From: an uncultured Candidatus Saccharibacteria bacterium
GTDB lineage: Bacteria; Patescibacteriota; Saccharimonadia; Saccharimonadales; EFPC-124
Reading direction: 5' to 3'
Assembly (NCBI GenBank): GCA_964405095.1
Contig: CAYOML010000004.1
Coordinates: 5,080 to 69,079, forward strand
DNA: 64,000 bases
Of this stretch, positions 19,864 through 52,991 are shown in pieces. Below the pieces are notes generated by a model. That model did no database searches. It was not told the DNA's origin and saw only the letters and a program-made list of their open reading frames with translations. The position numbers and the translations under genes were made by a program. Position 1 is the stretch's first letter, and every line of letters starts with the position of its first letter.

Positions 19864-19908
19864 TTTGCTACCCTGCCGCTATTTTCGTAAACGAGTTACA
19901 ATTAGCGC

Positions 19909-26335: not shown

Positions 26336-26345
26336 CATCTCCAAC

Positions 26346-34679: not shown

Positions 34680-34706
34680 TTGATTACTGCCTGCGAAGCA
34701 GAAAAA

Positions 34707-34800
34707 AAGGGGTGACGCGCGGCGGGGTTGCCCCAAAGTTTCTTTAAGGTATTTTCCATAAAGAATCTTTAGGGGCGGACCGCGGGGCAGGACCCGGCCA
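34707..34800 (+). repeat. palindromic intergenic element, copy A (core only, lacks outer CAAAACCC/GGGTTTTG ends)
   Basis: AAGGGGTGACGCGCGGCGGGGTTGCCCCAAAGTTTCTTTAAGGTATTTTCCATAAAGAATCTTTAGGGGCGGACCGCGGGGCAGGACCCGGCCA. It lies between convergent gene ends. Confidence 0.85.
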
Positions 34801-34814
34801 TCCTGGATGAAAAG

Positions 34815-35189
34815 CTAGTTCGAAATCTGCAAATCCTCGTCACTCAAACTCGTATCCCGAAAATCACCATAAGCCTGCAGATCGCTCTGACGGGCATCAA
34901 ACTCCTGCAAAAACTCATTAATAGTCGCAGCGGTAACAGGGCTAGCTGTATCGTAAGTCTTCTCTGGTGTCGGCTGCGAAATCTCGCTGCGCTCGCGTTC
35001 ATAACCGGGGCGGCTGAGGTCAAAACGGTAAAAACCCGTCCCGTAGTACAGGCTAACACTAGTGATAACCAGACCAATAGCCACCAACACCACCAAACTC
35101 AGAGCAACAAACAGCCGGTGGTGAGCCACTAAAACTCTAATGCGTTTAATGGTGGGATGCGTGCGAACTTTAGCGATTAGCTTTTTCAT
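34815..35189 (-). CDS. hypothetical membrane-anchored protein
   Basis: 124 aa. TM helix LFVALSLVVLVAIGLVITSVSLYY. Its start overlaps the upstream gene's stop (35189). Confidence 0.55.
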   Translation of the reverse strand: MKKLIAKVRTHPTIKRIRVLVAHHRLFVALSLVVLVAIGLVITSVSLYYGTGFYRFDLSRPGYERERSEISQPTPEKTYDTASPVTAATINEFLQEFDARQSDLQAYGDFRDTSLSDEDLQISN

Positions 35190-35719
35190 TAGTTACCTCC
35201 ACCCGAAGGCTTGGGCAAAGTAGGTTGAAGGGCTAACAACGCCTTACGGAATTGGCCGAGTGCTTTTTCGCCCTTAGTTACCTCAACACCTACACCCGCC
35301 CGCAGCACCCTAACCTTCTCGAGTGACTGAGCAAAGTCGGAGGCACGGTCGTTACAGTCAATTTGGCGCAAGGCCGACATGCTATCGTCATAACGCACAT
35401 AGGCATCACGGAATGCCAGCACTGCGGCTCTGAAGTCGGCAACAGACACATCAAATGTAGTGCTGGATAGGTTGTTGTGGTGCAGACGCGTAATTAAGGC
35501 GCTAATTTGGCGATTAACGTTTTCGTACTCGCGGCCGCGGTTGGTGCGCGCCACAAGATCACGGCGTTGTAGTTGATCGAGGCTGGTTTGTAACACCGTG
35601 CAACGCTGTTGGATTGCCGCCAAACGGCTGGCATCCAAAATATCTTGAGAGTGCGCAACGAGCGGCACAGCCAAAAAGGCCACAACAACGGTCATAACGA
35701 GGAAGCGTTTAAAAATCAT
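35189..35719 (-). CDS. hypothetical secreted helical protein
   Basis: 176 aa. Signal-peptide-like N-terminus (FLVMTVVVAFLAVPLVAHS). Confidence 0.55.
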   Translation of the reverse strand: MIFKRFLVMTVVVAFLAVPLVAHSQDILDASRLAAIQQRCTVLQTSLDQLQRRDLVARTNRGREYENVNRQISALITRLHHNNLSSTTFDVSVADFRAAVLAFRDAYVRYDDSMSALRQIDCNDRASDFAQSLEKVRVLRAGVGVEVTKGEKALGQFRKALLALQPTLPKPSGGGN

Positions 35720-35763
35720 CTATATCTAGGCTAGGCTAGGCAGATGGCCATGTCAAATCCTGT

Positions 35764-35918
35764 AGATCTGAATCTCAAAACCCTAATACATATGGCTGGG
35801 TCCTGCCGAGCGGTCCGCCCCTAGTTTGTATTTTTTTGGAAAATACCAAAAAAATAAAACCTGGGGCCGCCCCGCCGCTCGTCACCCCCTTGTTTATGGG
35901 GTTTTGAGAGTCAGATCT
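35764..35918 (-). repeat. palindromic intergenic element, copy B (full length, opposite orientation)
   Basis: Terminal arms AGATCTGAATCTCAAAACCC / GGGTTTTGAGAGTCAGATCT (1 mismatch). The core matches copies A, C and D when reverse-complemented. Confidence 0.85.
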
Positions 35919-35940
35919 GTAGCATATGGCCCATTGGTCG

Positions 35941-37830
35941 TTAATTAAGCGCAAAATATCCTGGCGGTGAGACGAAGGCATTCACAGGCACACTGACGTT
36001 GGCTATCTTCTTCGGTTTGCCGCCAAGGAGAGACAGAGCATAATCGGCTGTCTGGCCGCCGTCTGCCACCCGAAAGACAATCGTATTCCCCACCCAGTGA
36101 AGTGGTCCGCGGATTGCTGCCGAGCTATACAATCTGCGTTCTTGGCCGGTCGCCACGTTTTTTACCAGCAATGTTGTGACACCGTCGATCTTATCAACCA
36201 ATAGTCGTGTCTGGCCGTCAGTACTTGGCGATGACAAATAAACCCGGCTAGCACTACCTGGCGCCACGCTGTTCTTTACCTGGCCAGTATTGGCGTTGTA
36301 TTCGTGCCAATCACCAGAGCCAGTTTGATAGGCAAACCTATCGAAATCGCTTTGGGTCAGCTGCAAAAGACCATAGCCCAGATTTTTTTCGGTGCCGCCT
36401 TTTACCGGTACAACTCGTAATTCTGGGCCAGTGTCGTAGCCCTCTTCGCCAACAGTAAAACCGTAAGAATACACCACATTGCCTAGTGCCACCCGTGCAA
36501 TATCGAACCGCGACCCAGTACTTAGATCTTTGCGCTTGCCAGTCACCACATCAACGCTAACCAAGCGCTGCGAGCTCGCTGTACTTTTCGGCAACCGCTC
36601 GCCAACCGTATACACTAGCGACTCACCCGACCAATCTATAAAGCCAAACCATTGGCCGGAGTCGACTGCTATTACCTTTTTACTGGTCAGATTAATTACA
36701 TATAGCTTTTGTAACAGTGTACCCTGTGTATCGTGCGTGCCGTCACGGGTCGTGGCTACCACGGCGTATGTACCACCGGGATTATAGGTAACATTCAGAC
36801 CGGCGGTTTCTAGGGTACTGGCACTCATCACTTCACTAGGCAGGCTGCCATCGAGTCGGCTGCCATACACCACAGGACTGCCTGAACGCTGGCTAATAAA
36901 GTAGTGGCGGCCGCTAGGCACAAAGGTCACAGTTTGGACACCGCCAAGTGTAAGCTCAAATTCTTTATCTGTGTAAGCACCGCCGAACACAGCCTTGATT
37001 TTAGCCACCTTAGCCTCGGAGGCTGGCAGGCGTAGACTGACCATACCTTTATCATCTGGCGTGGTCACTGTGTCACCTACGCTGAACTTACCAAAGGTTA
37101 TGGGCTGGTCGCTCAACCAGTCACGCACTTGGAATTTGAGAGGCACACCAACGGCTTTAAGGTGGATTTTGACCTCCCGGACAGCCGTGTCTTGTTTGGA
37201 GCCGCCGAGCAGGTGGAAGAAAGGGTCAAAATCGAGATCTACCTCTGTTGTGACTGGTTCGTAGCCGGTTTTTTTGGCAGTGATTTGTAGTGTGCCGTAT
37301 TGCTGTTGGGTATCTAGCTTACCTTCATCGTTGGTCTGCTTTGTCGTGCCATTGAGCTCGACAGTCACCTTCTTAATAATGGCGCTGGGTTGGCCTGGCT
37401 CGACCTGGGTGTCGGTTGTTATGTGCACCGTTGTGCGCAAACCAACCAGATTCACCAGGAATATCCGGCTTGGAGTTATGAACCACGCTAGTAACAAGAT
37501 GGCTATGCTAGCGGCAGCCGTCAGCAGCCAAAATTTTGGGCGCTTAAAAAACGGTGGGCGGTCTTGGGGATGGAGTTCGACGTGCAGCGAGCTATCTGAC
37601 GGCACAGCCACGTCTTCGGCCTCGGCCGTATCAGTAGCATTGGCGGCCTGTCGTAACTCGTCATCACTGGCACCAATATCATCGGTCTCGGCACCGGGTT
37701 GACGCGGATCAGGCGGTGTCTCGGGCTGACTCTCAACATCCACCACCTCTGGCTTAAGTTCTTCAGCATCCAGTTCTTCTTCTAGTTCATCGAGGGTTCT
37801 CGGTGGTTTTGTCTCGTCATCTTCGGGCAT
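35941..37830 (-). CDS. hypothetical membrane-anchored extracytoplasmic protein (acidic N-terminus, Ig-like/propeller-like C-terminal region)
   Basis: 629 aa. Asp/Glu-rich first 90 aa, TM helix FWLLTAAASIAILLLAWFI, then a beta-rich region. No motif recognised. Confidence 0.6.
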   Translation of the reverse strand: MPEDDETKPPRTLDELEEELDAEELKPEVVDVESQPETPPDPRQPGAETDDIGASDDELRQAANATDTAEAEDVAVPSDSSLHVELHPQDRPPFFKRPKFWLLTAAASIAILLLAWFITPSRIFLVNLVGLRTTVHITTDTQVEPGQPSAIIKKVTVELNGTTKQTNDEGKLDTQQQYGTLQITAKKTGYEPVTTEVDLDFDPFFHLLGGSKQDTAVREVKIHLKAVGVPLKFQVRDWLSDQPITFGKFSVGDTVTTPDDKGMVSLRLPASEAKVAKIKAVFGGAYTDKEFELTLGGVQTVTFVPSGRHYFISQRSGSPVVYGSRLDGSLPSEVMSASTLETAGLNVTYNPGGTYAVVATTRDGTHDTQGTLLQKLYVINLTSKKVIAVDSGQWFGFIDWSGESLVYTVGERLPKSTASSQRLVSVDVVTGKRKDLSTGSRFDIARVALGNVVYSYGFTVGEEGYDTGPELRVVPVKGGTEKNLGYGLLQLTQSDFDRFAYQTGSGDWHEYNANTGQVKNSVAPGSASRVYLSSPSTDGQTRLLVDKIDGVTTLLVKNVATGQERRLYSSAAIRGPLHWVGNTIVFRVADGGQTADYALSLLGGKPKKIANVSVPVNAFVSPPGYFALN

Positions 37831-37876
37831 ATTGGTTATCCTTAAAAACTAATCCTAGTATAAACTACTTAGTGTA

Positions 37877-38497
37877 ATGACCGCACAATCAACCACCCAC
37901 CTTGCCACCCACGATCAAGTTCTAGCTCGGCTGATCGCCACACATGGCCCCTTCACACCTAGGCCGCACACCGATTACTACTGGGAGTTGGTTGATTCGA
38001 TCATCAGCCAGCAGCTGAGCATTAAGGCCGCGCGCACCATCGTACAACGCTTTTTAGCACTATTTAATGGGGAAGTTCCGAATGCCGAACAACTGCTAGA
38101 TAAAACACCTGAGCAGTTACGCGCTGTGGGCATGTCAGGTGCCAAAAGCCGCTATGTTCTAGACCTTGCACAGCACGTGCACGACGGCAGATTACAAGTC
38201 AAAAAACTACCAGAACTCAGTAATGAAGAAGTTATCAAGGAGCTGGTGGCGGTTAAAGGCATTGGCGAGTGGACCGCCCACATGTTTTTAATCTTCGCAC
38301 TGGGGCGGCTTGACATTTTACCAGTTGGCGACCTTGGTTTTCGGGCTGGCTTGCAAAAACTCTATGCTTTTGACCACCTGCCAAGCGCCGCCGAAATCCA
38401 CCAGCTGGCCACTGACCATCACTGGCACCCTTACGAAAGCGTCGCTACCTGGTATATCTGGCAGTCACTCGACAACGCACCAAAGGTTGGAACATAG
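37877..38497 (+). CDS. alkA: DNA-3-methyladenine glycosylase II (AlkA-type HhH-GPD)
   Basis: SIISQQLSIKAARTI...LRAVGMSGAKSRYVLDLA...LVAVKGIGEWTAHMFLIFALGRLDILPVGDLG is the canonical HhH-GPD with the catalytic Asp. Confidence 0.8.
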   Translation: MTAQSTTHLATHDQVLARLIATHGPFTPRPHTDYYWELVDSIISQQLSIKAARTIVQRFLALFNGEVPNAEQLLDKTPEQLRAVGMSGAKSRYVLDLAQHVHDGRLQVKKLPELSNEEVIKELVAVKGIGEWTAHMFLIFALGRLDILPVGDLGFRAGLQKLYAFDHLPSAAEIHQLATDHHWHPYESVATWYIWQSLDNAPKVGT

Positions 38498-38640
38498 AAC
38501 TCATTTCAAAACCCATCAAAAAGGGGGTGACACGCGGCGGGGCTGCCCCAAAGTTTTTTATGGTATTACCCCATAAAAAATCTTTAGGGGCGGACCGCGT
38601 GGCAGGACCCAGCCATAAGAATTAAGGTTTTGAAATAAAC
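38498..38640 (+). repeat. palindromic intergenic element, copy C
   Basis: ATTTCAAAACC...GGTTTTGAAAT ends with the same core as copies A and D. It lies between convergent gene ends. Confidence 0.85.
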
Positions 38641-38657
38641 TCTAGAAACCACGATCA

Positions 38658-39398
38658 TTAACTTAACAGTAAGATCAGCCCCGACACACAAATAGTTACC
38701 GCCAGAGCTATTTTCACGAATGCCGCTCCCTGTTTTATGGCTATTCGGCTGCCTATGTATGTCCCAATCGTCGAACCGATTAAACTGGCCACACAATGAG
38801 ACCACACCACTAAGCCTTGGATTGCCAGCAGAACGGCCAGAACGACTGCTTGAACGGCCTGAGCAACACGTTTGGTGGCCGTGGCCTCAAGAGCATTGAG
38901 CCCAAAAGCAAACATTAGAACCAACACTAGAACGATACCTATACCACTACCAACAATGGTCTGAGCAAAGGAAATAAGTGCGTAAACTATAAACCCAAGT
39001 GACATCCAATGATGCGCCCTGGGCCCGGGCTTCAGCGCCCGTTTGTTAATGAACATTAGTGGGGTCATTAGAACTAGAGCCACACCAATCAGTTTTTGGA
39101 ATAGCTCAGGGTCGAGCCTAGGAATCGCCCAGGCCGCAAAAATCGAGCAGACCAGTGTAATTATCATCAGCGGAACGACAAGTTTGCGGTTTACCATCCC
39201 CTCACCCTTAAATGCAGCTACTGAACCGGTAGCTACCCCGAGAGCGCCAAACTTCGAGGTAGCCAAAGCGCTCGCCGGTGCCATACCTAGAAAAATATAA
39301 TATGGCACAAACACCGCTCCACCACCGCCGCCACCGATGCCGGTTAATATGCTCACTGCCAGACTCAACCCAAATGTCAACAATACCAACCAGTCCAT
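38658..39398 (-). CDS. TauE/SafE (TSUP) family anion exporter-like membrane protein
   Basis: 246 aa, about 7-8 TM helices, GIGGGGGGAVFVPYYIFLGM...ATSKF motif. Confidence 0.75.
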   Translation of the reverse strand: MDWLVLLTFGLSLAVSILTGIGGGGGGAVFVPYYIFLGMAPASALATSKFGALGVATGSVAAFKGEGMVNRKLVVPLMIITLVCSIFAAWAIPRLDPELFQKLIGVALVLMTPLMFINKRALKPGPRAHHWMSLGFIVYALISFAQTIVGSGIGIVLVLVLMFAFGLNALEATATKRVAQAVQAVVLAVLLAIQGLVVWSHCVASLIGSTIGTYIGSRIAIKQGAAFVKIALAVTICVSGLILLLS

Positions 39399-39443
39399 GA
39401 TGGTCTCCTAAAACTAGTACCTATAATAGCTCAGTCGATTAGT

Positions 39444-39815
39444 TTAATCTGCTAGCAATTTCTTGATTCGGTCCATGAGTTCTTGAAGCGAGACATCAGA
39501 TTTAACTATAAAATCAATCGCGCCTAGCTCCCTGGTTTCTTCAGCGTCAGTGGCTTGACTCAGGTTAGACAGAATGAGCACCGGGATATTGGCAAGTGCT
39601 GGGTCGGCTTTCATTTCTTTTAGCACGCTAAAGCCGTCTTTTTTGGGCATAATCAAGTCTAGTAAAACTAAGTCGGGCTTGTGAGCCTTAATCTGTTCTA
39701 AGGCCTCCACGCCGTCGTTAGCCACAAAGACTTGGTAGCCAGCGCGGGTTAAACCGTCGTTGTAGGCCAGGGCAATAAACTGTTCGTCGTCGGCAAGTAC
39801 TATTTTTTTAGTCAT
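39444..39815 (-). CDS. stand-alone response-regulator receiver protein
   Basis: 123 aa. DD...D(LLDLIMP)...SNLS...K pattern. No output domain. Confidence 0.85.
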   Translation of the reverse strand: MTKKIVLADDEQFIALAYNDGLTRAGYQVFVANDGVEALEQIKAHKPDLVLLDLIMPKKDGFSVLKEMKADPALANIPVLILSNLSQATDAEETRELGAIDFIVKSDVSLQELMDRIKKLLAD

Positions 39816-39823
39816 AAGTCTCC

Positions 39824-42319
39824 TTAGCTTAGCGTTTTTTCACCTTTTTTAGCTTTCATACCGGCCTCAGGTATAGTGACGTAAAAGGTCGTGCCCTTAC
39901 CTGGCTTAGTTTCGAAACGGGCTTCACCACCAGTGGCATCAATAATTAATTTAACCAAGTATAGTCCCAAGCCAGTGCCCTCACCCTCGACAGCAATGGC
40001 ATTCTCGGCACGGTAAAAGCGCTCAAAAATGTGAGGTTGATCGTCAACTGGGATACCAATGCCATTGTCTTTTACAACCAGCACATGACCACTAGCCTGT
40101 TCCTTGAAGCTGACATCAACCGCACCCTTGCCCTCGACGGTATAACGGATAGCATTGGCCAGCAAGTTATGTATTACCTGACCAAATATTGCTGGGTCAA
40201 GATTAACCTTGGCCTGGCGGCTGTCACGCGTAAAATTAATCGTTACCCGCTTAATATCGGCCATTGGCCTGAGCTCTTCGATGTGTGATTGGATCAGCTC
40301 GTTAATATCGGTTGGTTCGGGTACAACTCGCACTCGGCCTAATTCGACGCGCGATACGTTCAAAATATCACCCACCAGTCGAATCATGCGTGATGTCGAA
40401 AGTTGGATTCGCTGCATGTATTCGTACTGTTTGTCATTAAGCGGCCCGACCTGTTTTTTGACCAACATCTCGCTGAACAGCCTCATGGCAGTCAGCGGCG
40501 TCCGTAGTTGGTGTGAAACTATCGAGATAAACTCATCTTTGGCCAAATCGAGCTGTTCTTGTTGAGTCACGTCGCGGAAAACCACAATTACTCCACGCTG
40601 CTTGCCGTCGGCATCAAACACTGGCGACGCCGAGTCGGCCACCGAGAGTACCACGCCATCCTTGCGAGTCAAAATAGTACCGTGTGCCATCTCGGCCTGA
40701 GACCCACCGAGCGCCCGGCCAATAAACCCGTCGTGTTGGGCCTTAGGATCATCACGGCTACCAAACTTTAAGATCTCGTTGTAGTGCTTACCCAGTACCT
40801 CCGAGCTGACATAGCCACTAAGTTGCTCGGCCTTTCTATTGAACAGGATTATCCGGCTAGCTTCGTCTAGAACAAACACACCATCACCAATGCTCGATAG
40901 GATGGCCTCGTCTTTACTCTTGGTGGCAACTGCTTCATCACGTTCATTCTGCAGGTCTTCGGTCATGGCGTCAGCTAGCTTGAGTGTCCGATCCCTAGCC
41001 CGAATCTGCTGCCAGAAAAGCATAAGCAGCAGCGTTGCCACAATAATCGAGCTGGCAATCGTCGTGCGGATTTGCCGTTGCTCGGTTGCCGTCAACCCAA
41101 AACCCACCGGCACACGACTATCTAGCGTCCAACTGTGACCGGCAATCGTCAATGGTTGCATGTTGGTCAGTGAAACATCAATACTTGTTTGGTCGCCTTG
41201 ACCATACACCAAGCGCGATTCGTCAATTACCCGTAGTGAGTTCTGGCTGGAAGCACTATTGAAAACTGCTTTAAAAAAGTTCTGGTAACTGAAGATTCCG
41301 TTTACGAAGCCGGTGAGTTGTTCGCGTCGTTGATCGACTGTACCGGGTACATTGTGGCGGTAAACCGGTACAGTAACCACAAAGCCCTTAGCCTGGTCAC
41401 CGCGGCTGTCTTTAGTGGCAAGCTCAATGGTGTGGCTGGCTGTGGGCTGTCCACTGTCACGAGCAGCTTGCAGGGTAGCTAACCACACCGGATCAAGCGA
41501 CCGATCAGTACCCTTGGATACCGTTTTTGCGGGCGCGCCAACATAAGTCACTAAGTAATGGTCATTACCTTTAGCATCCGCCACTCGGCGCACATAGTTT
41601 ATAGTTTCTATACCTGGGTAGCGATTGAGAGTATTAAGGGATGAAAAGTAGGTTGTAAACTCACTCTCCTCCACAGCATTACTGGAATCAAACAGGCCTC
41701 TAAAACCAATCAGGGCGTCGATGTAAGCCTGCACTCGATCTTTTAGTGATTCGTGCAGACTGGTGAGTTCCTTGTCGAAATTAGTTTGGGCTTGGTTATC
41801 AAGCCTATCCTGTGCCTGCTGCCAGGAGTTATAGGCCGAAAACCCAACCAGCATCAATACAATGAGGATAACCCAGCCAGACACCGAAATACGGCGCAAG
41901 CGTTCAATCAGGCCACTTTGAACCCGGCTCCCGGCCTTGGGGTCGCTTAACCATTGCAGCGCTTTCGTAGCTTTCGTAAAATAATGAACCTTTGTGCCCA
42001 CACCAGTAATCCGTAAAACATAAGACACAATTGGTCGCAAATAACGGTTGCCGACCACCGCAACGGCATCAAAGTCGGTGCCTAAGAACTCCTTGGCCTG
42101 GCTGCGCGTAGCACTATCAGTACTTTTAACTTCGCTAAGATCAATGAAAATCGCTACCCGTTTGCCCTCGCTCCGGAATTTAGCTACTAACGGCTTGTTG
42201 GCCTCACGCATCGCAACAATCGTGCCGGCTGTCTGACGGCCGTGTAGTACATGGCGAATAATCCCCTGTTCGTCGATGTATATCTGGTTATCCTGCAGGC
42301 TCGACAAGTCTTTGGCCAT
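39824..42319 (-). CDS. sensor histidine kinase (N-terminal STAS-like module, TM-bounded extracytoplasmic domain, PAS, HisKA, HATPase_c)
   Basis: H-box SIVSHQLRTPLT, N-box LLANAIRYT, G-boxes DNGIGIP / GTGLGLYL. TM helices lie near aa 150 and 420. A PAS-like segment covers aa 470-580. Confidence 0.85.
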   Translation of the reverse strand: MAKDLSSLQDNQIYIDEQGIIRHVLHGRQTAGTIVAMREANKPLVAKFRSEGKRVAIFIDLSEVKSTDSATRSQAKEFLGTDFDAVAVVGNRYLRPIVSYVLRITGVGTKVHYFTKATKALQWLSDPKAGSRVQSGLIERLRRISVSGWVILIVLMLVGFSAYNSWQQAQDRLDNQAQTNFDKELTSLHESLKDRVQAYIDALIGFRGLFDSSNAVEESEFTTYFSSLNTLNRYPGIETINYVRRVADAKGNDHYLVTYVGAPAKTVSKGTDRSLDPVWLATLQAARDSGQPTASHTIELATKDSRGDQAKGFVVTVPVYRHNVPGTVDQRREQLTGFVNGIFSYQNFFKAVFNSASSQNSLRVIDESRLVYGQGDQTSIDVSLTNMQPLTIAGHSWTLDSRVPVGFGLTATEQRQIRTTIASSIIVATLLLMLFWQQIRARDRTLKLADAMTEDLQNERDEAVATKSKDEAILSSIGDGVFVLDEASRIILFNRKAEQLSGYVSSEVLGKHYNEILKFGSRDDPKAQHDGFIGRALGGSQAEMAHGTILTRKDGVVLSVADSASPVFDADGKQRGVIVVFRDVTQQEQLDLAKDEFISIVSHQLRTPLTAMRLFSEMLVKKQVGPLNDKQYEYMQRIQLSTSRMIRLVGDILNVSRVELGRVRVVPEPTDINELIQSHIEELRPMADIKRVTINFTRDSRQAKVNLDPAIFGQVIHNLLANAIRYTVEGKGAVDVSFKEQASGHVLVVKDNGIGIPVDDQPHIFERFYRAENAIAVEGEGTGLGLYLVKLIIDATGGEARFETKPGKGTTFYVTIPEAGMKAKKGEKTLS

Positions 42320-42350
42320 AATCCTTATGATATCAAACCCGCTTAAGCTT

Positions 42351-42719
42351 CTAGCTGATTAATTCCCCAATCTTCTCAACTAGTTCATGCAAGGCAATAT
42401 CGGTTTTAACTACAAAATCGACTGCACCGTATTTTTTCGCTTCCTCGACATTGGATGGTTGGCTAAGGTTAGAAACCATCAATACAGGGATAGCCTTGAG
42501 TTCGGGCACAGCTTTAAGCTCTTTTAACACCGTCAGGCCATCCTTATGCGGCATGATGATATCGAGCACCACAATATCGGGCATCACCTTCTTGATGAGC
42601 GGTATGGCTTCTTCGCCGTCCCTAGCCACCGAAACAGCATAGCCGGCATGTGTCAGAGCGTCAGTGTAGGCAATTGTGGCGAATGGTTCGTCATCTACCA
42701 ACACAATTTTCTTGGGCAT
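42351..42719 (-). CDS. stand-alone response-regulator receiver protein
   Basis: 122 aa. Close paralog of the 39444-39815 protein (KKIVL.DDE....AY.D.L..AGY.V...DG.EA...). Confidence 0.85.
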   Translation of the reverse strand: MPKKIVLVDDEPFATIAYTDALTHAGYAVSVARDGEEAIPLIKKVMPDIVVLDIIMPHKDGLTVLKELKAVPELKAIPVLMVSNLSQPSNVEEAKKYGAVDFVVKTDIALHELVEKIGELIS

Positions 42720-42781
42720 ATTAGCTCCTCTATACCCAGCTTAGCATAATGGTTTTGTTTTTGTTGATGGGCCAGAGACGC

Positions 42782-43176
42782 TTATTCGCGGCTGGTTTTT
42801 TTACTATGCATCTGTAACCAAATGGTTATCTCGTGAACAGATGTATGATCTGTCGCAATCAGTATCGCAAAATCTTCCAGTTCTTTTGATGTGGCAGTTA
42901 GCCCGCTACCATTACGCATTAAAAAGATACCGCAGACCGTCACAGCCGTACGTTTATTCCCATCGACAAATGGATGGTCAGCGATGATATTACGTAGATA
43001 AACCGCAGCTTTTTCATATATACCTTTGTACTGTTCTTCACCAAACACCGCCTGCTTTGGGGCACCGACAACCGATGCCAGCCGTCCCTCATCACGCACA
43101 CCGTGTGAGCCACCAAAAGCCTCAACCACCTGAAAATGTAACTCAGTATTTCTTCCAAATCAAGATAGCGAGTCAT
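42782..43176 (-). pseudogene. doc: Doc (Fic-fold death-on-curing) toxin gene interrupted by a 1-nt frameshift
   Basis: The ATG at 43176 overlaps the antitoxin stop (ATGA) and encodes MTRYLDLEEILS. The Doc body (HFQVVEAFGGSHGVRDEG...HPFVDGNKRT) continues in another frame from about 43135. Adding one T in AGTTACAT would restore ...EEILSLHFQVVEAFGG. Confidence 0.7.
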
Positions 43177-43394: not shown

Positions 43395-43429
43395 ATTATA
43401 ACAACCTTATAATATTTTTAACACCCGCT

Positions 43430-44626: not shown

Positions 44627-44701
44627 AGCCAGACCTGGCTGGCAAAGTCAACGCCAACTTTTCCACAGGTCTACTACTGTAATTATGAAGCGAGCAATGT
44701 T

Positions 44702-46012: not shown

Positions 46013-46973
46013 AGGGTTGTACTTTCTTTGAATCAGTTGATAGGTAGTTCTGGATGGGCGGGGCTGAACCCAGGAGCTTTACCAATGCGTCGCGCAAGGT
46101 AACCAGCCCCGTTATATTGCCATTATCGCCGACTACTATAAACAGTTGCCGACCAGATTGCAAACTGGAGCTAAGTACAACCGCGAGAGGTGCGGATTCG
46201 GGCAGATAGTATACACCTGGCCGCAGTGCGTCTTTGACTTTAGTAACTTCCGGTGCAGGCTCGAGAATATCGCGCACGTAAAGCAGCCCCTGTAAACTAT
46301 TCAGGTCCTTTTTAACTACCGGGTAGACGTTGAAACCAGATTTATGCAGCCTATCAAGTAGGACTGGGCCGACCGTTTCGTCGGCATCGACGGTTACAAT
46401 CCGGCTGCGAGGTACCATAATTCCGGCGATCGTGTGGTCACTGAAATGAAGTGCGCCGAGCACCCGTGCTTTATCTTCGCTATTCAGCACATGGTCGTCG
46501 GCCGCAATCAGTTGCTGCAATTCACTACGCGAACTTAAGTGAATGGTATGAGCCCGAAACTGTGGCGCGAATGGCCGGACAACCGATGCGAATTTGGAAG
46601 CCGGTTGCACCATTCGTTTTTCGATTGCTCCCTGTAGATAACCGGCTATTGACGTTACCCAGCCCCGAGCGGCAGCCAGTTCGGCAATCAGCAGATAGCC
46701 AGCACATAATAACAACCCAGCCCATGCCTCGTGGGTACCAAGCAACAGCGTTGCAAGCAAAGCCACCAAGAGCACCTCCTTGAGGCGTTGCAGAGCAATC
46801 AGAATAGGCAACATGTGGTGACGTTGTAATTCGGCCTGCGCCCTAGTGTCACCCTGCTCAGCCAGACGGCTCAGTTCGAAGTCGCTGGTCTTGGCCGGAA
46901 CGTAGTGCAGGCTCTTTACCACCGCCAAAAATAAGGTGATGAGCAACGCTAAACCTTGTATAAACCATTCCAT
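45987..46973 (-). CDS. CNNM/DUF21 + CBS-pair membrane protein (CorC/HlyC-like)
   Basis: Four N-terminal TM helices, then tandem CBS (IMVPRSRIVTVDADETV...VYPVV...L.GLLYVRDIL...ITGLVTLRD). Confidence 0.7.
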   Translation of the reverse strand: MEWFIQGLALLITLFLAVVKSLHYVPAKTSDFELSRLAEQGDTRAQAELQRHHMLPILIALQRLKEVLLVALLATLLLGTHEAWAGLLLCAGYLLIAELAAARGWVTSIAGYLQGAIEKRMVQPASKFASVVRPFAPQFRAHTIHLSSRSELQQLIAADDHVLNSEDKARVLGALHFSDHTIAGIMVPRSRIVTVDADETVGPVLLDRLHKSGFNVYPVVKKDLNSLQGLLYVRDILEPAPEVTKVKDALRPGVYYLPESAPLAVVLSSSLQSGRQLFIVVGDNGNITGLVTLRDALVKLLGSAPPIQNYLSTDSKKVQPYENPNKAA

Positions 46974-46997
46974 ATATTTCTATTGTATTATGGAATA

Positions 46998-47681
46998 ATG
47001 AACAAGACGAAATGGATTATTTTTGTAGTGGTGGTCGCCGCCCTGTTTGGCGGTGTTGTTTGGCTGAGTAAAAGCAGTGAAAAACCGTTTGAAGGCGATG
47101 CCACAAAAGCAATTGACCAAGGCGAAATCAAAGATCATATCTTTGGTAACACCGAGCAAAAAGTAGTTTTGATTGAGTACGGTGATTACCAGTGCCCAGG
47201 TTGCGGCGCGATTTACCAACCACTTCGGGATTTAACTGAAAAATATAAAGACAAACTAACCTTTATTTTCCGTAACATGCCGCTTACCAATAACCATCCT
47301 AATGCCCTGGCCGCTGCTACGGCCGCCGAAGCTGCTGGTCTGCAAGGTAAGTACTACGAGATGCACGACAAGCTATACGAGGCTCAGGAGGCCTGGAGTG
47401 GTGCTACACTCGACCAGCGCACAGCCATCTTTGAGGGCTATGCTAGCGATATCGGCCTAGATGTAGCCAAATTTAAACAAGATCTATCCTCAAAAACCAT
47501 TAGCGATAAGATCAGCCGTGACAAATCAACCGGGTTGAAAACATTTGGTGTCGATAGCACTCCCACATTTGTACTCAATGGCACTGTTATAAAGGGTCAA
47601 GATGCTGTCACAGCCGAGACATTGACCAAAAAGGTCGAGGACGCCCTGAAAGCAGCCTTCGGCCAAGACGCTCTGAAATAA
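46998..47681 (+). CDS. DsbA-family thiol:disulfide oxidoreductase, membrane-anchored
   Basis: TM anchor WIIFVVVVAALFGGVVW. Active site YQCPGCG. The ATG at 46998 is preferred over 46956. Confidence 0.8.
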   Translation: MNKTKWIIFVVVVAALFGGVVWLSKSSEKPFEGDATKAIDQGEIKDHIFGNTEQKVVLIEYGDYQCPGCGAIYQPLRDLTEKYKDKLTFIFRNMPLTNNHPNALAAATAAEAAGLQGKYYEMHDKLYEAQEAWSGATLDQRTAIFEGYASDIGLDVAKFKQDLSSKTISDKISRDKSTGLKTFGVDSTPTFVLNGTVIKGQDAVTAETLTKKVEDALKAAFGQDALK

Positions 47682-47711
47682 AATAACCCCCGTTGTTTCG
47701 GGGGTTATTTT
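47681..47711. terminator. bidirectional Rho-independent terminator
   Basis: AAATAACCCCC-gttgtttc-GGGGGTTATTT with flanking A/T runs. Confidence 0.75.
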
Positions 47712-47714
47712 AGG

Positions 47715-47807
47715 CTAGTAGAGCAAGTAATCCTGCCACTCAGCCGGAACAATCTCCACCGCAACTTTTCGCGCCTTAGAAGGCACCTTGCGGATGTCAA
47801 TTGGCAT
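47715..47807 (-). CDS. candidate 30-aa small protein (MPIDIRKVPSKARKVAVEIVPAEWQDYLLY)
   Basis: It is below the ORF-track cutoff. AAGGAG lies 6 nt upstream of the ATG (47807), and the stop is directly followed by the 47681-47711 terminator. There is no homology evidence. Confidence 0.3.
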   Translation of the reverse strand: MPIDIRKVPSKARKVAVEIVPAEWQDYLLY

Positions 47808-48074
47808 TGCTAACTCCTTGACGCGTTTACCCACCCCTTGCTGAGGGAGTACAAAAACAGTACTTATGAGCGTCTTTGTTAATGTGGTGGCCATACGACC
47901 GGCTCTGACCTACACCGGCGTAACACACAACTAGAACCTTACCAAAGCTTACCGAACAGATCAAGCATAAGCTGCTTTCGATGTGTACAATATGTGTATA
48001 AACCTCCTGTGGAGGTTTATTAAAAGAGTGTGCTCGGTGAGGGGGAGGGTGTGGAGTGGTTCGGATTTATCAGA

Positions 48075-49004
48075 CTAGATAATCCGGCGTTTCTTGGCTA
48101 AAAGATACACACCAACGCTGAGAATTATAGAACTGGCGAATATTGCGGCAAATATCCAGCCAGCATGCTGGAATGGCAAACTAATGTTCATGCCGTATAG
48201 CCCAAACAAAACGTTTGGCAGAGTGATCATAATTGTGACGACTGTCAGGATTTTAATAGTCTGGTTCAGATTATTAGAACTGATGGTGGCGTAGGCACCA
48301 CGGATGTTGGTGATCGATTTAACGTGTGAGCGACAGCCTTCAATTGACTGCTCAGTATTTAGTAGCAGGTCTTCCACCACATCTTGATCCTGCTCAAACA
48401 GTGGTATGTGCCGCCCAAGTAGCAGGCGACGCAAAATAGCCGTGCTCGGCAGCATAGCTGACAAGAATTCATTCAGTTCGTCCTCGATCAGTACAAAATC
48501 GACAAAATCCTGGTTACTAATGTCGTGGCCTTTAAGCCGCGAGCGGATGATTTTGATCTGGCGGCCAACATTGTTGATGAAAACCTCGTATTGGTCGGCG
48601 ATCTGATCCATGATCATCAACGCTAGACGGGTGCGCTGCGTGGTAGCAAAATCCAAACGGCCATTCAAAAAACGCTGCAAACGCGGCAATTCGCCGGTAG
48701 AAATAGTCATGAACAGTTCGGGACCGATAATACAGAGCAGCGGGGCAGTGTCGAGCTCCAATTCGTCGCTGGTGAAAGCATAGCGTACAAAGATATAACT
48801 TAGCTCACCCTCGCGCTCCAGACGCGGCATTTCGTCGGGATCGAGCGCGTCCTGTACATGACCAGTTTCGAGTTTGAATCGTCGCACTAAAAAATCGACT
48901 TCTTCACTCGTCGGCGATTCAACGTAAACCCAACAACCCGGCTTATATGCTTCGAGTTCACTGAGTTTTTTGGTACGTAGGTTTTTATGGTAATAACGGA
49001 TCAT
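48075..49004 (-). CDS. corA: CorA-family magnesium/cobalt transporter
   Basis: 309 aa. Two C-terminal TM helices with the YGMNI (GMN) motif. Confidence 0.85.
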   Translation of the reverse strand: MIRYYHKNLRTKKLSELEAYKPGCWVYVESPTSEEVDFLVRRFKLETGHVQDALDPDEMPRLEREGELSYIFVRYAFTSDELELDTAPLLCIIGPELFMTISTGELPRLQRFLNGRLDFATTQRTRLALMIMDQIADQYEVFINNVGRQIKIIRSRLKGHDISNQDFVDFVLIEDELNEFLSAMLPSTAILRRLLLGRHIPLFEQDQDVVEDLLLNTEQSIEGCRSHVKSITNIRGAYATISSNNLNQTIKILTVVTIMITLPNVLFGLYGMNISLPFQHAGWIFAAIFASSIILSVGVYLLAKKRRII

Positions 49005-49018
49005 CAGGTATTAGTATA

Positions 49019-50452
49019 TCAGCCATTGGCCACGGCTGATGCTTCAACCTCCCGACCAGTACCCTTTTCCACAAAATACCGTTTTGTACCACCCACTACC
49101 AATCTTTCTTTGGCTATCATCTCGCTGCCGTTTGGTAGAATAATACGCTCGCCTGGTCTTAGCTGAACAGTGGTGGCTATTTTGCGCTTAACCATATTGC
49201 GACGGGCTTGGATTGCCCGTTGGCCTAAAGCCTGTCGGTACTTTTTGACGTCGTTGCCATATGGTCCACATTCGGAACATTTAGGTTCGCAAGGATCATA
49301 ATCGACTATCGAATCACAGAAAGGGCATGGGCCTCTCACTTTTTGCCTAACGCCATAACCCAAGGCCTCGAACTGGCCCTGGGCGGTGGTGGCGCTGGCG
49401 TTAAATCCACAACCGTTGAAGCTCTCGCCAGAAGCTGTAGCCTCACCGACGGCTGCACCGCGCTCACTGGCTATGTCTGCGTGTTTAGTCGTCCATTCAG
49501 TACCAAGCTCGTAGCGGCGCCTTAAGGCGGCAGCCGTGCCGTATCGAATAGCTTCCGCTTGGAGAGCAATGCCTTTGTCTTTGCTCCCCCGTTTTTGGCT
49601 CAAGACATACGGCGCAATCCGCCACAGATGGTCCTTGATAAGATCGGCCTGGTTTAGGGTGAACTGCCATGTGTCACCTCCGGCCTGGTGGCGGCCGGCG
49701 CGATGCGCACCCCCGTGTATGTGGTCCATAGCGGTGTCATAAATACCCATCACTATGTCTGGCAGGGCCGCCTGTTCCTCGGCCGTCAGGTTGATTGCGA
49801 CCCTCTCACCCAGCATTTCGTCATTCGTCGTCGAAACATCAGGGGCAGGGCGGCCAAAATAAGTGTAGATAGCATTGTAGGCTTCGCGTTCGTCGCCGTC
49901 GAGTGATTGGGAACAAATAGTTATATCACCGGTAGCATCGTCGCGAGTAATTATCCGGCTCCAGCCAAGGCCCCGCGAGGCCTGATAGCCATGGATGTCC
50001 TCTTCTAGACCGGCTAAAATAGCCGAGTTGACGACTACAGTGTTGGGGGTACTGCGATCATGGGCCATGTTATCCATAATCAAAAATTCTTCCCACTCGA
50101 CATCTGTTCGCATGACTTCGCCTTGCATCCGAGAATCCCGGCCGGCTAGTGTCTGGGCCCGCTCCTTGCTGTTTTCGAAAATTCCCCTGAGCTGTCGTCC
50201 GTCCTTGGCCGTCAGCTCGCCATCAACCAACCTGAAAGTAAAACGGCTGCGCATCGAACCATTCAACGTTTCGGCCAGCCAGGTTGTTTCGTCTTCGTAT
50301 AAACCAGCCAGCTCACGGCGCTCACGTTCTAGGGCACGGCCGTAATCTTCAAATCGTTCCCGTTCAATTCGGGCACGCACATCTTTTATAGACCATGTAG
50401 GTGTTGTTACGCGGGCTCGGCCAGACATTAAAACTACCCTGCTTTTTTCCAA
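49019..50452 (-). CDS. hypothetical cytoplasmic protein with C-terminal CxxC...CxxC zinc-ribbon
   Basis: 477 aa, no TM helix. CPFCDSIVDYDPCEPKCSECG near aa 385-405, followed by a basic tail. The start is TTG 50452 or ATG 50428. The stop lies 15 nt before the corA start. Confidence 0.6.
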   Translation of the reverse strand: MEKSRVVLMSGRARVTTPTWSIKDVRARIERERFEDYGRALERERRELAGLYEDETTWLAETLNGSMRSRFTFRLVDGELTAKDGRQLRGIFENSKERAQTLAGRDSRMQGEVMRTDVEWEEFLIMDNMAHDRSTPNTVVVNSAILAGLEEDIHGYQASRGLGWSRIITRDDATGDITICSQSLDGDEREAYNAIYTYFGRPAPDVSTTNDEMLGERVAINLTAEEQAALPDIVMGIYDTAMDHIHGGAHRAGRHQAGGDTWQFTLNQADLIKDHLWRIAPYVLSQKRGSKDKGIALQAEAIRYGTAAALRRRYELGTEWTTKHADIASERGAAVGEATASGESFNGCGFNASATTAQGQFEALGYGVRQKVRGPCPFCDSIVDYDPCEPKCSECGPYGNDVKKYRQALGQRAIQARRNMVKRKIATTVQLRPGERIILPNGSEMIAKERLVVGGTKRYFVEKGTGREVEASAVANG

Positions 50453-50694
50453 GCAGAGTAGTTATGTTTTTAAAAACGTGCACCTATAAAATCAGAGGTG
50501 TCCACTTTTCCTGCTCGGGATTAACGTCAAAGCGGATGTATCGGGCTCAGTCCCTTTCTAAGGAACATTACCGTTGCGGCACAGCTGACGAATTACACGT
50601 CATTCCATACACGCTCAGACGGACAAATTGTTAATACACTAAGTATACACACTACGGATAGCGGCAGATGATGTAGAATCTACGCTAACAGTAA

Positions 50695-51132
50695 TTACGG
50701 TTTCGTGGTGTCGGTGGGCGTAGTTGTATCGGCTGGCTTGGTCTGCGACGTGTCGCTAATATTTACCGGACCAACGTTGATCAGCTTGTTCTCTTTTTCG
50801 CGGTACAAGAGTGCCAGTTTGGCTTTGGTGTAAATCAAGATGTAATCACCATTTTGAGCCTTGCCGAAGAATGCTTGGTCTTTGAGCTTGTCTTTATCTG
50901 AAATTTGGGCGATAGTTGGATCCTCATCGTTCGGCAGCGCGTATAACTTGCCTACTTCTGTTTTCAGGCGCTGGGTCGTTTCTTGAGTGGCCAGCGATGG
51001 GTCATTCTTGAGTCTCATGTACTGCCAGAAGTAATAACCAGCCGCTGCCGCTAAGCCCACCAAAATCAGAACGCCAACAATAATAAGAATTCGATTGCGC
51101 ATTTTCCTCCCTGTTCCCTCCACTTCAATCAT
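50695..51132 (-). CDS. small membrane-anchored hypothetical protein (paralog of 13112-13546)
   Basis: The likely start is ATG 51102 (MRNRILIIVGVLILVGL). See the paralog alignment under finding 13112-13546. Confidence 0.65.
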   Translation of the reverse strand: MIEVEGTGRKMRNRILIIVGVLILVGLAAAAGYYFWQYMRLKNDPSLATQETTQRLKTEVGKLYALPNDEDPTIAQISDKDKLKDQAFFGKAQNGDYILIYTKAKLALLYREKENKLINVGPVNISDTSQTKPADTTTPTDTTKP

Positions 51133-51228
51133 ATGTAGCTATGGTACGGCAAAAGCCTGATGTCGGTCAAGTTTTGGGGAACAGGCGAGGTTTTTGCAAT
51201 CGTGTCGCAGGAATAATATAGTTGAGCT

Positions 51229-51642
51229 ATGGACAGCGGCATCCAGAAAGTCAAAACGACCCTCAAAGAGGCACATTTCAGCGCCACCCGCAGCCGCTTG
51301 CTAGTTTTTACTAACCTGGCAAACACTGGCCCAAAAAGCGTCGGGGCACTAGCCGAGGCTTTGCAAAAAGACATCGACCGCGCCACAGTTTATAGAACTA
51401 TCGAACTCTTCGAGCGCTTAGGCATTGTTAATCGTATATGGCAGGGCTTTAAACACCAGGTCGAGTTGAGTGAGATTTTTACACCGCATCATCACCACGC
51501 CCTATGCCAAAATTGCGGTCGGACGATCGATATCGCCAGCCCAGAACTGGAGGCTGCTCTTACAACCCTGGCCAAAAAACATCGTTTTTTGGCCCTCAAC
51601 CACTCCGTAGAATTGAACGGCTACTGCCCTAATTGCCAGTAA
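51229..51642 (+). CDS. Fur-family metalloregulator (Fur/Zur/PerR)
   Basis: 137 aa. Winged-helix N-terminus, HHHHALCQNCG...CPNC metal sites. Confidence 0.8.
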   Translation: MDSGIQKVKTTLKEAHFSATRSRLLVFTNLANTGPKSVGALAEALQKDIDRATVYRTIELFERLGIVNRIWQGFKHQVELSEIFTPHHHHALCQNCGRTIDIASPELEAALTTLAKKHRFLALNHSVELNGYCPNCQ

Positions 51643-51658
51643 TTAGTGTGGCTCAGAC

Positions 51659-51749
51659 CAACACTGTGGCATTCTGAGCAGACTTAGCTTCCCGCGGACG
51701 AGGCCGCTGCTTGCGGCCGAAGTCGTCTGCAAAGAATGCCATAGTGTTG
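51659..51749. other. long imperfect hairpin H1 (25-nt arms)
   Basis: CAACACTGTGGCATTCTGAGCAGAC (51659-51683) pairs with GTCTGCAAAGAATGCCATAGTGTTG (51725-51749) at 22/25 positions. The inner GGCCGC-tgctt-GCGGCC tip continues the stem. Confidence 0.75.
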
Positions 51750-51758
51750 ATCGGGCAT

Positions 51759-51898
51759 CAACGTATGCCTGCACCATCCCCACTTGTTACTTCAACGGCA
51801 CATTCCGCGCGGGGCAGCCCTTGGTGGGGCTGCTCCGGCTGCACTCGGCATCCAGACCGTTGGAGTAACAAGTGGGATGGTGCAGGACCTATACGTTG
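51759..51898. other. long imperfect hairpin H2 (about 40-nt arms)
   Basis: 51759-51798 pairs with 51857-51898 through blocks of 8, 13, 10 and 6 nt, with small bulges. The inner GCAGCCC-ttggtg-GGGCTGC tip continues the stem. Confidence 0.75.
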
Positions 51899-52033
51899 TA
51901 ATCTTTTACTATCTGTGCTCTAATGTAGGACAGCAGATACTTGCTACGGATTTGGTTTAGATGTGCCTTGACTGCCTTCTACGACCCAAGTGGTAAGTGG
52001 TCGTTCTGCGCCATTTTAAGATAAGGAAGTAGC

Positions 52034-52333
52034 ATGGCAGTCAAACTATATGTCGGCAATTTGCCGTATAGCACGACCGAAGACGACCTGCGCGAAATGT
52101 TCGCAGCGCACGGTACCGTCGAGTCAGCCGCAGTCATTTCTGACCGCGACACTGGCCGATCCAAAGGCTTTGGCTTCGTTGAAATGAGCACCCCAGAAGA
52201 GGCGAAAGCCGCTATGGACGCTCTCAACGGCAAAGATTTTGGTGGTCGTGGCTTGGTAGTCAACGAAGCTCGCCCACGCGAAGATCGCCCCCGTTCAAAC
52301 GACGGTGGTGGCAATCGCCAACGCAGCTGGTAG
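52034..52333 (+). CDS. RRM-type RNA-binding protein with Arg/Gly-rich tail
   Basis: RNP-2 LYVGNL, RNP-1 KGFGFVEM. 99 aa. AAGGAAG SD. Confidence 0.85.
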   Translation: MAVKLYVGNLPYSTTEDDLREMFAAHGTVESAAVISDRDTGRSKGFGFVEMSTPEEAKAAMDALNGKDFGGRGLVVNEARPREDRPRSNDGGGNRQRSW

Positions 52334-52354
52334 ATAATCCAGTCAACTATAAGA

Positions 52355-52385
52355 AATAACCTCCCATCTGGGAGGTTATTTTTTG
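52355..52385. terminator. bidirectional Rho-independent terminator
   Basis: AATAACCTCCC-atct-GGGAGGTTATTTTTT. It overlaps the stop of the convergent gene. Confidence 0.75.
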
Positions 52386-52795
52386 GCGTGTCTCCTGGCG
52401 ATATGGTGCTTTATCAGTTCTGCTTGGCGATCAACAAACTCTTGGCGCAGAACATGGAAATCTTCTTGGAACATATCTAGCTCTTCGTCAGTCAGTTCCT
52501 CAAGACCCATTAGGTCGTTGCGGGCGCTTTGCTGTGATTTGATTAGTCCGTCGAGCTTCAGTTGCATAGCGCGGTTATGCCGGTTCTGAGTGTTCTGAAT
52601 TAGGAAAACTATTAAGAACGTTATGATCGTACAAATTGTATCAATAGTCAGTAGGGTCTGTTCGGTATAGTTGTTGGGAAAATTGGTAGCCGCCCAGGTT
52701 AATATAAAAACAACGGCAATAATAAATAACCAGGACGAGCCTACGAACTTGGAGGCTCTGAAGGCAAAGCGGCGGAAGATTTCGTTAGTTGGCAT
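52376..52795 (-). CDS. low-affinity iron permease family (PF04120-like) membrane protein
   Basis: Two TM helices, then FLIQNTQNRHNRAMQLKLDGLI. The ATG at 52795 is preferred because the longer ORF reads into repeat copy D. Confidence 0.65.
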   Translation of the reverse strand: MPTNEIFRRFAFRASKFVGSSWLFIIAVVFILTWAATNFPNNYTEQTLLTIDTICTIITFLIVFLIQNTQNRHNRAMQLKLDGLIKSQQSARNDLMGLEELTDEELDMFQEDFHVLRQEFVDRQAELIKHHIARRHAKK

Positions 52796-52840
52796 AACCT
52801 TGGTTTTATTATAACGGTTATGTCTGGGGATGAATAGTGA

Positions 52841-52991
52841 GCAATCAAATCTCAAAACCCCATAAACAAGGGGTGGCGCCTGGCGGGGCTGCCCCAAAGT
52901 TTCTTTATGGTATTTTCCATAAAGAAATCTTTAGGGGCGGACCAGGCGGCAGGACCCAGCCATTAGTATTAGGGTTTTGAGATTTGATTGC
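52841..52991 (+). repeat. palindromic intergenic element, copy D (full length, perfect 20-nt terminal inverted repeats)
   Basis: GCAATCAAATCTCAAAACCC ... GGGTTTTGAGATTTGATTGC, with the shared core in between. It lies between divergent gene starts. Confidence 0.9.

Follow-up and report, generated by a model that had tools for sequence, protein, structure and literature searches.

How can the two arms of a repeated palindrome change in sequence from copy to copy and yet go on matching each other within each copy? The question is raised by a stretch of 64,000 nucleotides from an uncultured Candidatus Saccharibacteria bacterium (GenBank assembly GCA_964405095.1, contig CAYOML010000004.1, positions 5,080 to 69,079 of the forward strand), here called the window and numbered from its own first letter, which holds exactly four copies, A to D, of one palindromic element. 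We read these as a new family of insertion elements specific to this lineage, short, palindromic and non-coding, which would be non-autonomous and similar in kind to REPINs or miniature inverted-repeat transposable elements (MITEs). Whether structure-dependent propagation of such a mobile element explains the pattern is a matter on which we would place the chances at about even.

The count of four is firmly set within the window. The conserved 16-mer GGCAGGACCCAGCCAT occurs there four times at up to three mismatches, against 0.48 occurrences expected by chance, and other conserved blocks of the element point to the same four loci. A covariance model derived from the four copies found, with its filters off, A to D alone (at 102–119 bits), the next-ranking matches being the reverse strands of the same four copies; extended to the window plus 87 kb of loci from the same genome and from relatives, the model, again with filters off, returned only the four known copies.

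All four share a core of about 97 nt (GGGGTGAC...CCAGCCAT), which forms one long bulged hairpin when read from either strand. Going inwards, the outer part of the core comprises a 4-bp helix (GGGT/ACCC), a loop in which GA lies opposite GCAGG, and a 7-bp helix formed by a left and a right box; the middle part has a loop of CGGGGCT opposite GGA, a helix GCCCC/GGGGC, a bulged A, a helix AAAG/CTTT and a bulged T; and the centre is an A/T-rich stem of 10–11 bp with a loop of 6–7 nt. In terms of sequence blocks, the conserved arms contain GGCGGGGCTGCCCCAAAG on one side and CTTTAGGGGCGGACC...GGCAGGACCCAGCCAT on the other, with the variable, compensated central stem between them. B, C and D have an added shell of A-rich and T-rich internal loops, terminal inverted repeats of 11–12 nt (TCTCAAAACCC / GGGTTTTGAGA in B and D, TTTCAAAACC / GGTTTTGAAA in C) and, outermost, arms that are specific to the copy: GCAATCAAA/TTTGATTGC in D (9 nt) and AGATCTGA/TCAGATCT in B (8 nt). 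The complete outer arms of B therefore read AGATCTGA-C-TCTCAAAACCC and GGGTTTTGAGA-T-TCAGATCT, those of D (GCAATCAAATCTCAAAACCC / GGGTTTTGAGATTTGATTGC) pair perfectly over 20 bp, and those of C continue beyond the terminal repeats as a degenerate extension (a 7-of-10 match with three C.A oppositions). Copy A is without the TCTCAAAACCC outer arms and terminal repeats, and retains an A-rich remnant of the shell on its left side only. An alternative 'clover' of local hairpins is also possible, from CCCC-N8-GGGG (left) and CCC-N14-GGG (right).

Neither strand folds appreciably better than the other: minimum free energies (RNA parameters, one strand then the other) are -85/-79 in D, -75/-79 in B, -57/-58 in C and -48/-41 in A. 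Folding z-scores range from -3.5 to -12 across the copies (D, -84.8 with z -12.1; B, -74.5 with z -8.5). Oppositions other than Watson–Crick are few and favour neither strand: one G.T is seen in B read forward, and three G.U would arise only if C were reversed. There is, moreover, a gradient of stem quality, from D, which is perfect, through B with one or two defects and C with its three C.A oppositions in the outer arm, to A, which has three mismatches (G.G in the box, A.A and T.T in the centre) and no shell.

The original prediction, made from the letters alone, was that the 7-nt boxes differ between copies while remaining complementary within each copy, with one mismatch in A. All the box strings are indeed present (Table 1), as are the central-stem strings that it quoted for C and D and the copy-specific outer arms that it quoted for D and B. 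To examine the covariation, the four sequences (which are also those from which the structure was derived) were aligned in two ways, once by MAFFT, which is blind to structure, and once by fitting to the model, which leans towards it. In the structure-blind alignment eight of 31 pairs show change in both partners, where shuffles give 2.5 +/- 1.3, and no pair has changed in one partner alone; the share of cells that pair is 94.3%, compared with 87.9% for shuffles, and none of 500 shuffles reached the observed values. In the model-fitted alignment the double-changed pairs number 11 and the paired cells amount to 98.4%. When the partner is shifted by one to three columns, the signal is mostly lost (0–5 double-changed pairs, 35–61% of cells paired). 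Compensated change thus extends to three separate stem segments, as had been proposed, and does so well beyond shuffle expectation.

The box is the clearest of these segments, being free of gaps and unambiguous in alignment. Double changes affect four of its seven pairs: a G-C pair has become A-T in C, a C-G pair has become A-T in B, and two adjacent pairs have changed in D. There are thus four substitutions in the left-arm box, each accompanied by its exact complement in the same copy, for which an estimate that assumes independence (our own rough figure) is about 1e-5. CpG deamination or avoidance of restriction sites was considered as a cause of variation in the box and rejected, two of the four compensated pairs being transversions. 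The central stem adds an indel to these substitutions, in that D has one extra C/G pair relative to C, compensated in the opposite arm. Pairwise identity of the cores is just 77–89%, so that the pairing has survived genuine divergence of sequence; what we see is not a recent burst of copies with one hypervariable box but a family that has diverged generally, with paired positions changing in concert.

The asymmetric loops and bulges, on the other hand, are preserved in sequence and in asymmetry from A to D while the intervening helices change. The earlier statement that the sequences flanking the boxes are invariant needs some adjustment here: GGGGCGGA and GCAGGACCC, the right-arm flanks, are identical from A to D, but GGGGTGA beside the left box has become GGGGTGG in D, and the loop CGGGGCT reads CGGGGTT in A and CGGGGCG in B. 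Loops that are kept while helices change give the look of an element recognised by its structure, and speak against one arm having been copied wholesale from its partner.

Is the element mobile? Three syntenic relatives (L019/L020, L023 and L024, with 57–74% identity in the adjacent 629-aa protein) are without copies A, B and C, and have the same gene order as that found between the copies in the window. At site A, the convergent stop codons abut (TAA|CTA, with 0 nt between them) in L019 and L020, whereas 135 nt separate them in the window. At site B the relatives have a gap of 18–59 nt and the window one of 221 nt; L019, which has no element there, keeps the promoter (TTGACATG...CCTAGCCTAGCCTAGATATAG) that lies downstream of B in the window. 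At site C the HhH-GPD and TauE genes share 9–38 nt in all three relatives; in the window 160 nt lie between them, and the outer arm of copy C takes in the glycosylase stop codon. The glycosylase ends in four residues (KVGT*, 38483–38497) that are unlike the tails in all three relatives, and the insertion of copy C appears to have remodelled the 3' end of this gene. Since the genes of the relatives abut, overlap or lie 18–59 nt apart at the junctions occupied by A to C, the copies are, to judge by this comparison of gene order, lineage-specific insertions.

Site D differs in that two relatives have an 85-aa MazE/AbrB-like gene between the iron-permease and MFS genes, the MFS protein of one of them being 88% identical to that of the window. 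There is no MazE-like gene in the window between 52796 and 53092 (compared with L025:756-1106), where copy D occupies a shortened spacer, and tblastn found no remnant of such a gene around D. The MFS promoter, TTGACC-18 nt-TATGAT, is conserved between the window and the relatives, and copy D ends 16 nt upstream of its -35 hexamer at 53008. The closest relative found, that with the 88% MFS protein, is represented by a 26-kb JGI contig and has gaps of 123–167 nt at junctions that are tight in the window; about 35 kb of relatives' DNA contains ordinary short terminator hairpins only. By parsimony, all four copies would have been gained in the lineage of the window.

Table 1. Positions in the window of the four copies, their parts and their neighbours
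Feature	Position	Strand	Details
Copy A, core	34707–34803	+	core only; covariance-model score 106 bits
Copy A, whole insert	34680–34814	+	135 nt; fills the entire gap between two convergent stop codons
Copy A, left box	34716–34722	+	CGCGCGG
Copy A, right box	34780–34786	+	CCGCGGG; one uncompensated change, giving a G.G mismatch
MscS-like gene, neighbour of A	33834–34679	+	
Gene for 124 aa, neighbour of A	34815–35189	-	
Copy B	35760–35922	-	full length
Copy B, left box	35875–35881	-	CGAGCGG
Copy B, right box	35807–35813	-	CCGCTCG; full complement of left box
Gene for 629 aa, neighbour of B	35941–37830	-	its stop bounds the interval that holds B
Gene for 176 aa, neighbour of B	35189–35719	-	its conserved TTGACA promoter bounds that interval on the other side
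Copy C	38495–38644	+	full length
Copy C, left box	38531–38537	+	CACGCGG
Copy C, right box	38595–38601	+	CCGCGTG; full pairing
Copy C, central stem-loop	38554–38580	+	TTTTTTATGG 38554–38563, 7-nt loop, CCATAAAAAA 38571–38580
HhH-GPD glycosylase gene, neighbour of C	37877–38497	+	convergent with TauE gene
TauE gene, neighbour of C	38658–39398	-	convergent with glycosylase gene
Copy D	52841–52991	+	full length; all helices perfect; 119 bits
Copy D, left box	52877–52883	+	CGCCTGG
Copy D, right box	52942–52948	+	CCAGGCG; dinucleotide change mirrored in both arms
Copy D, central stem-loop	52900–52927	+	TTTCTTTATGG 52900–52910, loop TATTTT, CCATAAAGAAA 52917–52927
Copy D, left outer arm	52841–52860	+	GCAATCAAA + TCTCAAAACCC; first 9 nt copy-specific
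Copy D, right outer arm	52972–52991	+	GGGTTTTGAGA + TTTGATTGC; perfect complement of left arm
Iron-permease-like gene, neighbour of D	52376–52795	-	divergent promoter region
MFS transporter gene, neighbour of D	53093–54727	+	divergent promoter region

How, then, might an inserting element come to carry compensated changes? In the REP/RAYT system, at the ends of IS200/IS605 and in the interaction of integron attC sites with IntI, recognition takes place through a folded single strand. The present element may similarly be copied or moved in trans via a folded single-stranded intermediate, a trans-acting protein reading the conserved loops and bulges, while the helices would need only to pair. 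Lineages of the element that were deficient in pairing would stop spreading, so the copies that did insert would carry compensated changes, and would decay after insertion from the perfection of D down to the state of A; the observed gradient of stem quality fits such decay. The copy-specific outer arms would probably have been added at or after insertion, either by template switching that extended the inverted repeat into the flank or through insertion into a small palindrome already in place.

No clear direct repeat that could be a target-site duplication was found at any copy: there is none at A or C, B is ambiguous (AGATCT being itself palindromic), and the flanks of D, GCAATCAAA and TTTGATTGC, are a perfect inverted pair rather than direct repeats. 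The inverted flanks of D fit HUH-type or structure-directed mechanisms rather than MITEs of the DDE type. The lack of direct target duplication, together with the precedent of REPINs, in whose hairpins compensatory changes are common, the spacer included (PMC3116915), fits structure-dependent propagation.

Several observations weigh against this proposal. Only four copies are known, and scans for the conserved arms in GTDB, JGI and IMG/VR gave nothing beyond chance matches. Judged by Pfam, neither a transposase nor a RAYT (Y1/HUH, PF01797) nor a recombinase was found in the 64-kb window or in 5 kb beyond it. No GTAG-type tetranucleotide is conserved across the copies, and the only small palindrome (GGGGCTGCCCC, 11 nt) is in the left arm, the right arm retaining half of it (GGGGCGGACC). 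A core identity of 77–89% reflects more divergence than is typical of recently active MITEs or REPINs, and selection in place would account for it just as well. Finally, the case for mobility is one of presence and absence relative to organisms 57–74% identical, not of polymorphism within a population.

The scans referred to above were made on several scales. In 185,579 GTDB species genomes, the exact pattern GGGGCGGACC-N5-GGCAGGACC gave 15 single matches, in unrelated high-GC genomes and all attributable to chance. A 20-base version of the pattern gave one match in JGI metagenomes, to an unrelated tandem repeat, and three IMG/VR scans for patterns of the right and the left arm returned 0, 2 and 13 matches, none of which fits the covariance model. 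Copy D had no blastn match in phage and plasmid collections. Stop-free six-frame peptides of the four copies, concatenated and compared with 5.8 billion proteins, gave nothing at E <= 1, and a conserved small open reading frame (ORF) or type I toxin was rejected in any case, as indels shift or close the frames between copies. A full-text search of the literature turned up nothing on interspersed palindromic repeats in bacteria of the candidate phyla radiation (CPR). The same DNA is found in Logan contigs of run SRR9179563, and these end inside B, C and D (at 35859, 38581 and 52931); assemblies tend to break at repeated sequence, so these ends hint at further copies or variants in the sample.

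Two other readings deserve extended consideration, each of them in our view unlikely. In the first, the element does spread, but pairing is kept by selection on each copy in place, as a cis-acting RNA (for example a 3'-end hairpin by which transcripts of neighbouring genes are stopped or stabilised, or an RNA that binds protein). Conserved loops with covarying helices at 77–89% identity are, after all, the classic pattern of a structured-RNA family; A and C lie directly after convergent stop codons and B after the stop of the 629-aa gene, so that all three would be transcribed as 3' untranslated regions (UTRs); and the convergent gene pairs of the relatives have no spacer or terminator. This reading accords less well with copy D, which is not in a 3' UTR but upstream of a promoter between divergent genes, with the equal folding of the two strands and the division of non-Watson–Crick oppositions between them, and with the fall in stem quality from D to A, as would be expected of decay in situ. 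Nor does any Rfam family fit the element: in the window only three tRNAs reach gathering thresholds, and relaxed matches on the elements are to generic hairpins at 15–25 bits, where the thresholds are 47–100. A role as an intrinsic terminator was rejected, because a simple scan found no terminator-like T-run or site within any copy; the terminators of this genome look different (for example those at 47679–47712 and 52351–52384). As to the form in which the structure acts, the folding of the two strands points neither to RNA nor to single-stranded DNA.

The second reading, which we consider no more probable than the first, dispenses with selection: the arms would have been kept complementary, and extended, by template switching during replication or by repair of hairpins or cruciforms, short patches being copied from arm to arm. 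Template switching in quasi-palindromes is known to homogenize and expand the arms of inverted repeats, and to generate apparent compensatory substitutions in one step (PMC8794818, PMC13100816, PMC7202029). It would account for the mirrored dinucleotide in the box of D and for the mirrored one-base indel that distinguishes the central stems of C and D, and it gives the best and simplest account of the outermost arms, as inverted copies of unique flanking sequence. At site B, for example, the left flank ACAGATCTG resembles the ACAGATATG of a relative, whereas nothing there corresponds to the right flank TCAGATCT, which would follow from its having been copied from the left one. Template switching therefore probably contributed to the outer arms whichever reading holds. 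Its difficulties lie in the core, where none of the four asymmetric loops and bulges has been made symmetric in any copy, even though they abut helices that have changed. In three independent copies a copied tract would have had to stop inside the box of 7 bp, and in D, where the bases bordering the box are not complementary to those opposite, the tract would have had to end exactly at the ends of the box. Purifying selection on the loops would thus be required as well, and function is then already implied.

The interpretation offered with the original prediction is supported in part. Its description of the double changes as a signature of selection on structure is borne out to the extent that the covariation is real and the loops are kept, but four copies give no power for a phylogeny-aware test, or for separating selection on pairing from template-switch copying between arms. 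It did not bring out that related genomes lack the copies, nor that compensated spacers have a precedent in REPINs. Conversely, its suggestion that one arm is copied from the other is disfavoured by the conserved asymmetric loops if wholesale copying is meant, while short-patch switching remains the simplest explanation of the outermost arms.

A more adventurous idea, which we regard as improbable and mention as a speculation, is that the element is the substrate of an undescribed structure-reading system of Saccharibacteria that acts on single-stranded DNA, in which the loops would serve as the handle for a protein, the 7-bp box as a lineage-specific 'address' matching the two ends, and the inverted flanks would be a by-product of insertion (an inverted target duplication). 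That a few related inverted repeats look this way by coincidence, or through an artefact of assembly, might be entertained given that there are only four sequences and that their source is a metagenome-assembled genome, but it is extremely improbable in view of the failure of all 500 shuffles to reach the observed covariation and of the exact reproduction of the arms of B, C and D, up to the contig ends, by the independent Logan assembly of the same run.

Some other features of the window may be recorded at this point. An intergenic hairpin of about 118 nt at 51768–51885 has outer arms of about 35 bp (CCTGCACCATCCCCACTTGTTACTTCAACGG / CCGTTGGAGTAACAAGTGGGATGGTGCAGG) and a GC-rich centre in which GGGGC(A/T)GCCC is present twice in inverted orientation. 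It contains CCGCGCGG followed by GGCAGCCC, resembling CCGCGCGGCAGGACCC in the right arm of the main element, to which it may be related, perhaps as a hybrid. Its centre, at 51820, is where a Logan contig from the same sample breaks off. Two further intergenic hairpins (51656–51752 and 19774–19868), each present as a single copy of about 95 nt, have near-perfect outer arms of 27–28 bp and a GC-rich centre with a small hairpin, an architecture reminiscent of the main element with its copy-specific outer arms.

The window also has three genes for tRNA-Met (CAT anticodon) within 15 kb (13836–13912, 26383–26457 and 28659–28734) and no other tRNA; they are presumably the initiator, the elongator and tRNA-Ile2 (with lysidine). 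The second of these, which is on the minus strand, has its T-arm region (26396–26414) repeated as a perfect inverted copy of 19 nt at 26317–26335, about 50 nt past the 3' end of the gene, with a 19-bp hairpin (26345–26384) between the two. The inverted copy could be a tRNA fragment left by integration or rearrangement. A giant ORF of at least 3251 aa (15–9770) takes up the first 9.8 kb, and is followed by an ORF of 761 aa, whose protein has no match in a precomputed Pfam listing; nor does that listing contain a record for the truncated 2359-aa part of the giant ORF.

CPR bacteria such as Saccharibacteria have genomes of about 1 Mb that are tightly packed with genes. A self-propagating structured element in such a genome, if that is what we are dealing with, would be a marker of recent genome dynamics. 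It would also be a possible source of changes at gene ends and promoters, since genes that overlap in relatives have been separated, one stop codon has been overlapped and the place of a MazE-like gene has been taken. It would, further, provide a compact natural test case in which selection on hairpin structure can be set against template switching between arms.

How does the element compare with systems already known? The process of template switching in quasi-palindromes resembles what is seen here in its mirrored multi-base changes and in the outward growth of inverted repeats (PMC8794818, PMC13100816), but leaves unexplained the unconverted asymmetric loops beside changed helices. There is a functional analogy with integron attC sites and the ends of IS200/IS605, imperfect palindromes whose stems vary yet still pair, and whose conserved parts are short boxes and bulged or extrahelical bases. 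Here, though, there is neither an R/L box consensus nor a cassette array, and no TnpA or TnpB gene is near the element; an attC identity was rejected because orientations are mixed (+, -, +, +), there is no integrase, and the intervening genes are syntenic with those of copy-free relatives. Retrons, CRISPR and diversity-generating retroelements were rejected too, as the genes and architecture that they need are absent, and so were the 38-bp ends of Tn3-like transposons, to which there is a superficial GGGGT..GACGC likeness, but with neither a 5-bp duplication nor a terminal TAAG. A cyanobacterial repeat, at first suggested by the GC content, was rejected because the proteins assign the window to Saccharimonadales, homologues of the 629-aa protein being annotated as Candidatus Saccharimonadales.

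The MITE-type repeats of bacteria (the Correia element of Neisseria, pneumococcal RUP and BOX, enterobacterial ERIC and rickettsial RPE) share with our element a length of 100–170 nt, terminal inverted repeats, the lack of coding capacity, insertion at gene ends and near promoters, and the ability to alter the end of a neighbouring gene (as in the glycosylase stop at copy C). They differ from it in that here there is no direct target duplication (the flanks of D being inverted) and conservation peaks in the internal loops, not at the termini; the element has no sequence similarity to Correia, RUP/BOX, ERIC or RPE, and no parent insertion sequence is present in the window.

The closest known system is the REPIN. 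Like REPINs, the element is short, non-coding and extragenic, is without an obvious target-site duplication, and has inverted conserved units flanking a variable segment whose only kept property is that it pairs; in addition, both the long hairpin and the 'clover' of local hairpins are possible in it. Membership is not established, however, given the nature of the arms, the absence from the 64 kb examined of a RAYT gene, which REPINs typically flank, and the copy number. The arms are not two self-palindromic REPs, each of which would be an imperfect palindrome of 20–40 nt with a GTAG-type tetranucleotide; the conserved arm encloses another variable helix, that of the 7-bp box, and the outermost arms are copy-specific; the copies are far more diverged than typical REPIN populations; and the element resides in the small genome of a CPR bacterium. 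REPINs number tens to hundreds of extragenic copies per genome; the four counted here, all extragenic, come from 64 kb. To our knowledge, REPIN and MITE families do not include any with a second covarying helix in the conserved arm, with loops as the most constant part, or with copy-specific inverted flanks. Compensated change in a palindromic repeat is already familiar from REPINs, so that what is new here is not the principle but a family that exhibits it in an unusual host.

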